Shown here: positions 5,982 through 7,551 of the stretch, piece by piece
Layout of the letters: every line of letters starts with the position of its first letter
Position numbering within the stretch: the first letter of the stretch is position 1
DNA from: Elusimicrobiota bacterium
GTDB lineage: Bacteria > Elusimicrobiota > Elusimicrobia > UBA1565 > UBA9628
DNA: 63,601 nt
Assembly: GCA_016207605.1 (NCBI GenBank)
Contig: JACQPJ010000023.1
Span: 1 to 63,601 of the forward strand
Direction of reading: 5' to 3'
The notes under the pieces: generated by a model
The model's input: only the letters and a program-made list of their open reading frames with translations
Told to the model about the DNA's origin: nothing
Database searches by the model: none
Translations under genes and position numbers: made by a program

Positions 5982-6785
5982 CTAGCCGAAACGGCCGGTG
6001 ATGTAGTCCTGCGTCCGCTGGTCCCGAGGATTGGTGAAGAGGCCTTCCGTGGCGCCGAATTCGACCAGGTCCCCCAGGAGCATGAACCCCGCCCGGCTGG
6101 AGACGCGGGCGGCCTGCTGCATGTTGTGGGTCACGATGACGATGGTATAGTTTTTCTTCAGCTCGAACAAAAGCTCCTCGATGCGGGCGGTGGCGATAGG
6201 GTCGAGAGTCGAGCAGGGCTCGTCCATGAGCAGGACGTCCGGCTCGACGGCCAGGAGCCGCGAGAGGCACAGGCGCTGCTGCTGCTCCGGCGGAAGGCTC
6301 AAGGCGGGAACGCGCAGCCTGTCCTTGAGGTCGTCCCACAGCCCGGTCGCGCGCAGGTTGCGCTCCACCGCCTCTTCCAGCTCCGCGTTTGACGCCATGC
6401 CGTGGATGGCGGGCCCGTAGGCGACGTTCTGGAAGACCGAGATCGGAAAGGGGTTGGGCCTCTGAAACACCATTCCCACCCGCTTGCGCAGCGCGATCAG
6501 ATCCGCGTCCGGCCGGTAGATGTCCCGGCCGTCGACGAGGACGCTCCCCTCGATGCGGACCCCGCGGACCAAGTCGTTCATGCGGTTGAAGACCCTCAGG
6601 AGGGTCGACTTGCCGCAGCCGGAGGGGCCGATGAGCGCGGTGATCTCCCGACGGGGGACGGCGACGTCCACGTCCTTGAGCGCGCGGAAGCTTCCGTAGA
6701 ACAAGGACAGCGACCGAGCCTCGATGGCGGGCGTCTGGACGCGGACGTCCGCGGCCGGGGGGTCAGCCGAAGCGGCCTGAGACAT
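5982..6785 (-). CDS. pstB: phosphate ABC transporter ATPase PstB (signature motif degenerate)
   Basis: [39 protein letters not shown]; signature reads LPPEQ instead of LSGGQ. Confidence 0.93.
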
Positions 6786-7551
6786 AGTCGGCGGTCCTCC
6801 GGTTCTGGGGGTTGGTGAAGATCAGGCCCGTCTCGCCCATCTCGACGAGGTCTCCCATCAGCAGGAAGGCGGTCCGGTCGGAACAGCGGGAGGCCTGCTT
6901 GACGTTGTTGGTCACGAGCACGACGGATATCCGGCTCTTGAGCCCCTGGAGGGCTTCCTCGATCTTGGCGGTGGAGATCGGGTCCAGGCCCGAGCAGGGC
7001 TCGTCGAGCAGCAGCAGCTCCGGGCCGGCCATGAGGCTCCGGGCCAGGCAAAGCCTCTGCTGCTGGCCTCCCGACAGCTTCAGCGCGGAGTCGTCGAGCC
7101 GGTCCTTGACCTCGTCCCAGAGGTAGGCGGCCTTCAAGCTCCGCTCGATGCGCTCGGAGGGCGGGCCCGCGGCCGCGGCGCCGAGGATGCGCAGCCCCAA
7201 AGTCAGGTTGTCCCGGATGGACATCGGCAGCGGATTGGGCACGGCGAAGACCATGCCGATTCTCCGGCGCAGGGAAGGGACGTCGACGCCTTCCCCATAG
7301 ACGTCCAGGCCGTCGAGCCGGAGGCGGCCCTCGACCGCCAGCTCGGGCTCGAGATCGATGAGCCGGTTGAGGCAGCGCAGGAAGGTCGTCTTGCCGCTGC
7401 CGGCGGGTCCGATGAGGGCCAGGATCTCTCCGCCGCGCACGGTCAGGGAGACGCCGTTGAGGATCGCGTTCTTCCCCTTCCTGACCCGAAGCCGTTCGAC
7501 GACCAGCTTGTCCGCCGGGCTCGGCACAGACGCGTCATAGGAAATGCCCAT
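6763..7551 (-). CDS. pstB: second PstB-type ATPase (Q-loop and H-switch degenerate)
   Basis: [36 protein letters not shown] in place of MVFQ and VTNN in place of VTHN; start ATG 7551. Confidence 0.9.

Follow-up and report, generated by a model that had tools for sequence, protein, structure and literature searches.

The phosphate locus and its surroundings

The window analysed here, a 63,601-nucleotide stretch from an Elusimicrobiota bacterium, carries on its minus strand a phosphate-import operon with the order porin-pstS-pstC-pstA-pstB(B)-pstB(A)-phoU. At its head is a phosphate-selective porin O/P family protein (10263..11411; PF07396, E 1.5e-10), followed by the phosphate-binding protein PstS (9403..10227; TIGR02136 over cut-off), the permeases PstC (8468..9406) and PstA (7557..8468), each over the cut-off of a TIGR02138 or TIGR00974 family profile, the two ATPases, and PhoU (5296..5973; TIGR02135 over cut-off), which lies directly after the second ATPase. 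With TIGR02136, TIGR02138, TIGR00974, and TIGR02135 all over cut-off in one operon, the genes belong to a PstSCAB system. The ATPases are referred to here as type A and type B. Type A (267 aa; 5982..6785) scores 365 bits against TIGR00972, for which the cut-off is 343, while type B (262 aa; 6763..7551) scores 305 bits, and TIGR00972 is its best family in the profile search although the score is under the cut-off. The two open reading frames overlap by 23 bases, both on the minus strand and with the coordinates of the original prediction; the database gene call for type B starts 8 codons later than the 6763..7551 frame. They are the only PstBs found in the window genome (75% complete), and their nearest named homologues, at 79% and 78%, are labelled Elusimicrobia.

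The rest of the window holds several other features. A second phosphate cluster, 17 kb away at 28572-32063, encodes a PiT-family transporter and a DUF47 (PhoU-like) protein on the minus strand and, on the plus strand, a PhoB-like regulator followed by a short PhoR/PnpS-like kinase (349 aa); the regulator and kinase (30298-32063) both score under the curated PhoB/PhoR cut-offs. After phoU, the minus-strand genes at 1598-5249 encode one protein resembling squalene cyclases, one resembling polyprenyl synthases, and a third in which two cNMP-binding domains are combined with a PqqD-like element and an M50/daptide-type metalloprotease; together they look like a modified-peptide or terpenoid cluster. 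An alternative-oxidase-family protein is encoded at 646-1386 (minus), and a radical SAM protein at 11539-12486 (minus), just upstream of the porin. Finally, a lower-GC stretch at 12808-14576 (plus) holds a D12-class adenine methyltransferase gene and then a 243-aa open reading frame with no Pfam match and an HNH-like motif seen by eye; this is probably a restriction-modification pair.

Two ATPases with reciprocal lesions

Types A and B are 48-50% identical, and each is broken at motifs that the other keeps. Type A has its A-loop aromatic (Y30), Walker A (residues 53-61), Q-loop Gln (Q108), Walker B (D188-E189), and H-loop His (H220), but the signature reads LPPEQ (L164-P-P-E-Q168; 6282-6296) in place of LSGGQ. 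Type B has an intact LSGGQ (residues 159-163; 7063-7077), Walker A (48-56), Walker B (D183-E184), and a D-loop reading SGLD, but carries Ala for the Q-loop Gln (A103; 7243-7245), Asn for the H-loop His (N215; 6907-6909), and Lys at the A-loop position (K25; 7477-7479), where there is no aromatic. The original prediction had described this division of signature, Q-loop, and H-loop lesions between the two ATPases, and the residues bear it out. It had also listed the missing A-loop aromatic as a type B trait, which is true of the window and its subclade (Phe or Tyr stands there in 5 of the 119 nearest type B database matches) but not of the family, in which 104 of 142 type B proteins at 90% dereplication keep Phe, Tyr, or Trp. 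Neither PstB carries the full motif set that a homodimer with two consensus sites would have. The single-chain model of type B is nevertheless that of a normal nucleotide-binding domain (NBD), with a pLDDT of 90 and E. coli PstB as its best structural match (TM 0.89).

Both genes were matched with zero differences by contigs of a possible source sequencing run, and pieces from two further runs of the same study, which are not independent, match the type B signature, Q-loop, and H-loop. In a check for expression, the data sets listed as carrying the sequence included no RNA. Sequencing error or a pseudogene was ruled out by the run contigs, by the dN/dS ratios given below, and by the recurrence of the split in distinct proteins.

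Conservation of the pair across loci

All loci together yielded 368 distinct full-length PstBs, comprising 128 type A, 149 type B, and 91 canonical proteins. LSGG, Gln, and His are all kept in 91 of 91 canonical PstBs, the 128 type A and 149 type B proteins repeat the split, and no single chain among the 368 combines the two kinds of lesion; the division of motifs is therefore not a product of chance or error. The loci encoding A and B proteins are labelled with about ten phyla, including Planctomycetota, Omnitrophota, Spirochaetota, Acidobacteriota, Verrucomicrobiota, Lentisphaerota, Ignavibacteriota, Bacteroidota, Thermodesulfobacteriota, and Actinomycetota. As the original prediction had anticipated for tandem pstB pairs, the substitutions co-vary and recur together in relatives.

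Within type A, the Tyr, Lys, Gln, Glu, and His of the cis motifs are invariant (129/129), and of the 38 clusters formed at 70% dereplication, 34 have Glu at the fourth signature position, three have Asp, and one has Tyr, while positions 2-3 drift freely. Type B invariably has SGGQ, the Walker A Lys, and the Walker B Asp-Glu (149/149); at 70% dereplication, Ala or Ser replaces the Q-loop Gln in 44/44 clusters and Asn replaces the H-loop His in 43/44, L141 being the one type B protein that keeps the His. Other changes are fixed or nearly so, namely Phe-to-Leu after the Q-loop (149/149), SGLD for SALD (147/149), and HNMQ to NN[VT]K, with the Lys in 140/149; the middle Walker A Gly is Asn in 78/149. 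Database matches follow the same division: 118 of the 119 nearest proteins found with type B are B-type, one of them with LSAGQ as well, and of the 119 found with type A, 108 are A-type and 11 canonical. Among plasmids, 146 records matched, and the 12 listed are 48-55% identical.

Several outlying proteins were also seen. Two distant B-like proteins (P0325 and P0316) have lost the Q-loop Gln and kept the His, and these, together with L141, are possible intermediates. A more diverged version of the pair (P0247, P0248, P0249, and P0421) has B-like halves with the D-loop FSIAID and no His, and A-like halves with LTLEQQQK. Among 150 PstB-like representatives, 29 are non-canonical (e.g., P0474, P0483, P0497, P0500, P0410, P0423, and P0490); some of these have lesions of both signature and Q-loop in a single chain, others read LSIGQ or LSVGQ, and further degenerate PstB lineages may exist. 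At least five one-chain B+A records among 120 listed longer proteins were considered as natural fusions that would speak for pairing and were set aside, since they are singletons whose first half loses its C-terminal motif and continues into residues that, judged from the protein, read out of frame, so that they look like frameshift artefacts; a one-chain PstA-B record (P0265) was likewise discounted.

The arrangement of the genes is equally regular. In 41 related genomes, 30 loci were found, of which 27 have one canonical PstB and three the pair (the window, G021, and G036). Among the best 80 GTDB loci found with type A, 57 have only canonical PstBs, 20 have B directly followed by A (two of these with a separate canonical gene nearby), and three have A and an upstream PstB cut by the contig end. 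Conversely, B is present in all of the best 80 metagenome loci found with type B, and a readable A is next to it in 66; 11 of the remainder show the cut start of a second PstB, and three end within 43-278 bases.

Co-occurrence in whole genomes

Genomes were searched with DNA patterns that, on their own set, matched 127 of 129 type A and 148 of 149 type B genes and no canonical gene; nine A reading frames fitted the B pattern as well, which was attributed, unchecked, to the overlap with the B gene. Among 401 genomes of the window's phylum, A was found in 92 and B in 95, and every genome with A also has B; reversed-pattern controls on these 401 genomes gave no match. Three genomes matched B alone: the contig end truncates A in G397 and lies inside B in G212, and in G166 (88% complete) no A was found in the 1.4 kb downstream of B. 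A second phylum, that of an Omnitrophota record, gave A in 42 and B in 45 of 121 genomes, and in the three extra B genomes a downstream partner is present, being a full A missed by the pattern in two and cut before its signature in the third. These counts must be read with the caveat that neighbouring genes co-occur and share similar trees anyway, and that the sampled genomes are kin, on which account a Fisher test of co-occurrence is given no weight.

In nine genomes (G148, G091, G053, G079, G114, G128, G052, G134, and G073), A and B are unlinked, with B beside pstSCA and A elsewhere, and both are intact; the two partners were read full-length in G148, G091, G053, G079, G128, and G073; several of the nine are kin, and the events are therefore fewer than nine. 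A tenth candidate, G150, was dropped because it looks misassembled. That both genes were kept after linkage was lost points to mutual need rather than hitch-hiking.

A proposed heterodimer with one catalytic site

As described in PMC7756269 and PMC12976172, one ABC site is built from Walker A/B and the A-, Q-, and H-loops of one NBD together with the signature of the other NBD. Under this rule, the cis motifs of A and the signature of B form one fully consensus site, and the Walker motifs of B, with Gln and His lost, face the broken signature of A in a second site that deviates from consensus at three or four points. The contention that all intact motifs fall into one composite site and all broken motifs into the other is thus upheld by the motif mapping and by the recurrence across the family. 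An A-A dimer would have no intact signature and a B-B dimer neither Gln nor His; since neither homodimer has a complete site, the pair is presumably obligate.

The conserved, matched sequences make it quite probable that one A and one B sit together on PstC/PstA and import phosphate through a single catalytic ATP site. Co-variation, co-occurrence, and selection strongly support the predicted obligate heterodimer with one degenerate site; the binding of A to B is itself suggested by co-occurrence, and the loss of hydrolysis at the second site by its motifs. In such a motor, one A and one B would close over ATP at the consensus site, this ATP would be hydrolysed with the Glu and His of A, and hydrolysis would power the alternating access of PstC/PstA in the usual way. 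Hydrolysis at the second site would not reach transport rate; nucleotide would stay bound there, and the site would brace the motor or act as its hinge during the cycles of the first, as in Pdr5 and TM287/288. Nucleotide is probably held there because B keeps the Walker A Lys and Walker B Asp-Glu and because its new residues are fixed rather than drifting, but this is less sure because the window's subclade has lost the A-loop aromatic and Asn frequently takes the place of the middle Walker A Gly. With its P-loop kept and its replacements fixed, the second site seems more likely to act as a hinge or sensor than to be decaying.

Comparison with known systems

The canonical PstSCAB of E. coli (PDB 9k3x, 9k3y, and 9k3s; PMC12976172) has the same operon parts and NBD fold as the system described here, and permease arginines at positions that probably correspond. 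It is, however, built on a PstB homodimer with two consensus sites, whereas the pair consists of two genes from which one consensus site can be built. In the latter respect the pair resembles TM287/288, TmrAB, TAP1/2, MRP1, CFTR, and Pdr5, in all of which the deviations lie in one composite site. Like them, it has non-identical NBDs with the deviations confined to one such site, a signature change on one NBD (lack of SGG defines type A, and all 128 distinct type A proteins keep Gln and His), and an H-loop change on the other. For example, the type A signatures LSLEQ, LSPEQ, and LSVEQ resemble the LNVEQ that PMC8421411 gives for Pdr5. The likeness is partial. Most known degenerate sites are described as changing the catalytic Glu, the usual exporter pattern being Glu-to-Asp (PMC7756269), whereas the pair has lost the Q-loop Gln and kept the Walker B Glu. 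Nor are exporter-fold domains fused to its NBDs, which are separate proteins of 262-267 aa working with PstC/PstA and PstS; the system is a type I importer whose NBDs stand alone.

Exporters commonly have degenerate sites (PMC3971661), and the original prediction had drawn its analogy to exporters of the TAP/CFTR type. That analogy should take in importers too, for according to PMC11466899 the importers RbsA and NupO also have one degenerate ATP site that arises, as in the pair, from reciprocal changes in two NBDs. The NBDs of RbsA and NupO are described there as lying in one chain and having lost the Walker A Lys, while the pair comprises two genes, keeps this Lys in every type B protein, and uses a PstC/PstA permease. 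In another example, DppD/DppF resembles the pair as two NBD genes on two permeases in a type I importer, but both of its subunits are reported to hydrolyse ATP, unlike the predicted pair (PMC12136057).

The nearest precedent for gene order is the tandem pstB1/pstB2 of Firmicutes (E. faecalis, PMC12096839; B. subtilis PstBA/PstBB), in which adjacent, non-identical genes with unequal roles precede phoU. As PMC12096839 describes the E. faecalis proteins, their motifs are intact, which sets them apart from the pair, and excess PstB2 replaces PstB1; tandem PstBs thus need not be obligate, though the motifs are intact there. A one-sided design is known from exporters, and for phosphate importers it was not found described. 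No description of a reciprocally degenerate PstB pair turned up in the literature covered, although most subscription journals and supplements fell outside its scope and a prior mention is possible.

Origin and evolution

Trees were built from 16 canonical proteins and 50 pairs, the latter dereplicated from 125 full ones. A and B each occupy one side of a branch, with SH-aLRT values of 99 and 100 (96 and 96 once the motif columns are removed), and a careful 40-row tree supports the A and B clades at 100/98 and 100/99. A single clade of A plus B against the canonical proteins is absent from the free tree, yet it is not rejected (AU p 0.39, 40 rows). Median dN/dS over 15 disjoint close pairs is 0.07 and 0.08, and both A and B are under purifying selection. 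Their distances are correlated (r 0.51, with 0 of 2000 permutations as high), as those of adjacent genes would be in any case. The window pair groups with pairs from another family in its class while most of its genus kin are canonical, a pattern that fits transfer or patchy loss.

These results bear on a neutral alternative, compatible with the heterodimer, in which a duplication was followed by complementary losses that locked the copies together and left the second site without a role. The single origin from one duplication that the AU test allows, the service of most kin by canonical single-gene systems (27 of the 30 loci), and the free drift at positions 2-3 of the type A signature all favour such a ratchet; against it, the replacements are fixed, with Glu or Asp at signature position 4 in 37 of 38 clusters (70% identity) and Asn in the H-loop in 43 of 44, and B retains the P-loop Lys and Walker B. 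On balance, neutral locking is conceivable but on the unlikely side.

Cargo, PhoU, and signalling

Phosphate remains the likely cargo of the paired systems, since PstA R218 (126/126) and PstC R228 (103/103) are invariant in pair loci, as they are in canonical loci. These likely match R220 of PstA and R237 of PstC, described in PMC12976172 as the phosphate-selecting arginines of E. coli, the mapping being deduced with the E. coli permeases outside the alignment. The coupling-helix profiles of pair and canonical loci, compared for hints of which permease each subunit docks on, differ (e.g., PstA Val 184 and Ser 187), a difference that phylogeny confounds. Five genomes were checked for kinases. 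Neither a HisKA domain nor a PhoB-like regulator was found in G061 and G042, which are 99% complete and keep A, B, and phoU, whereas G048, G079, and the window genome have both. Neither PiT nor a Na/phosphate cotransporter was found in G061, G042, and G148, while G091 has a Na/phosphate cotransporter and the window genome a PiT. Some genomes thus yielded no motor for phosphate pumping other than the pair.

The original prediction had proposed that the dead site could serve PhoU/PhoR signalling, and a second site used mainly for signalling or feedback, its conformation or ligand being read by PhoU (and PhoR), would again be compatible with the heterodimer. There is a precedent in E. coli, where, according to PMC5775613, PhoU and PhoR relay signals that Pst gives through the conformations of PstB; in the present loci, phoU lies directly after A in 78 of the 90 with enough DNA (39 being too short) and remains beside A where the operon is split, new residues have become fixed in B (the Phe-to-Leu change and NN[VT]K), and the window has its PhoB/PhoR-like genes. 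However, phoU is equally standard beside a canonical single pstB and is absent after A in 12 of the 90 loci, and G061 and G042 retain the pair with no kinase found, so that PhoR signalling is not required to keep it. The PhoR half of the proposal is thereby weakened and the PhoU half stays possible, and signalling as the main role of the second site appears doubtful. It is tempting to suggest a variant in which the second pocket has been rebuilt as a sensor of ADP, phosphate, or another phosphorylated ligand, throttling uptake with PhoU and without PhoR at one ATP per phosphate. The acidic residue of the type A signature at the gamma-phosphate position, the NN[VT]K and SGLD of type B, its kept P-loop, and the loss of the aromatic in the window's subclade could all be read in this way, which we put forward only as a speculative and rather improbable extension.

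Is the second site silent?

Under the preferred reading, that of an A-B heterodimer with one catalytic site, the second site probably does not hydrolyse ATP at transport rate, by analogy with better-known proteins. The acidic residue of type A occupies what we take to be the same second glycine of the signature as CFTR G551. The CFTR substitution G551D, which places an acidic residue in the signature, is reported to abolish hydrolysis nearly completely (PMC10115640), and the LNVEQ site of Pdr5 is described as holding ATP without splitting it (PMC8421411). Both precedents weigh against a heterodimer in which both sites hydrolyse, the second slowly or weakly, so that up to two ATP are spent, and so does the joint loss of signature, Gln, and His in all dereplicated clusters bar one His. 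On the other side stand the Lys and Asp-Glu kept in 149 of 149 type B proteins, the two active sites of DppD/DppF, itself a heterodimeric importer motor (PMC12136057), and the consensus site of MRP1, in which, as summarised in PMC7756269, His-to-Asn or His-to-Gln changes kept transport and Q-loop changes were mild. Two working sites are accordingly quite unlikely. The word "dead" in the original prediction is likely right, but it is tempered by the same kept residues and by MRP1, which make residual hydrolysis or a weakly active B homodimer possible.

Finally, it is highly improbable that there is no fixed heterodimer, with B forming a weak homodimer, or each subunit pairing with a canonical PstB and the other being accessory: a third PstB does occur in 37 of the 92 pair genomes, and PstB1 is described as an accessory subunit in E. 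faecalis (PMC12096839), but, with six candidates scored per genome, 55 of the 92 lack a third PstB, in the cases viewed the third PstB lies among pst genes of its own, no A was found in the absence of B, and the invariant cis catalytic set of A would be useless without a partner's intact signature.

Implications

Standard annotation hides the pair, since both genes are simply called pstB. Many Elusimicrobiota-like genomes yielded no PstBs besides this pair, for example all 22 genomes of one genus (code g86; 0.6-1.4 Mb), which have the pair and no third PstB. The number of ATP molecules spent per substrate in importers is unsettled, as HisP is reported to work with one site and MalK to need two (PMC3971661), and the purpose of degenerate sites is still debated; a small, soluble pair makes both questions testable through single-gene and single-residue changes. 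If the single-site reading is true, one ATP per phosphate would be predicted to follow, and the pair would represent a textbook type I importer occurring naturally in single-site form, with a two-site counterpart, that of E. coli, whose structure is known from cryo-EM.
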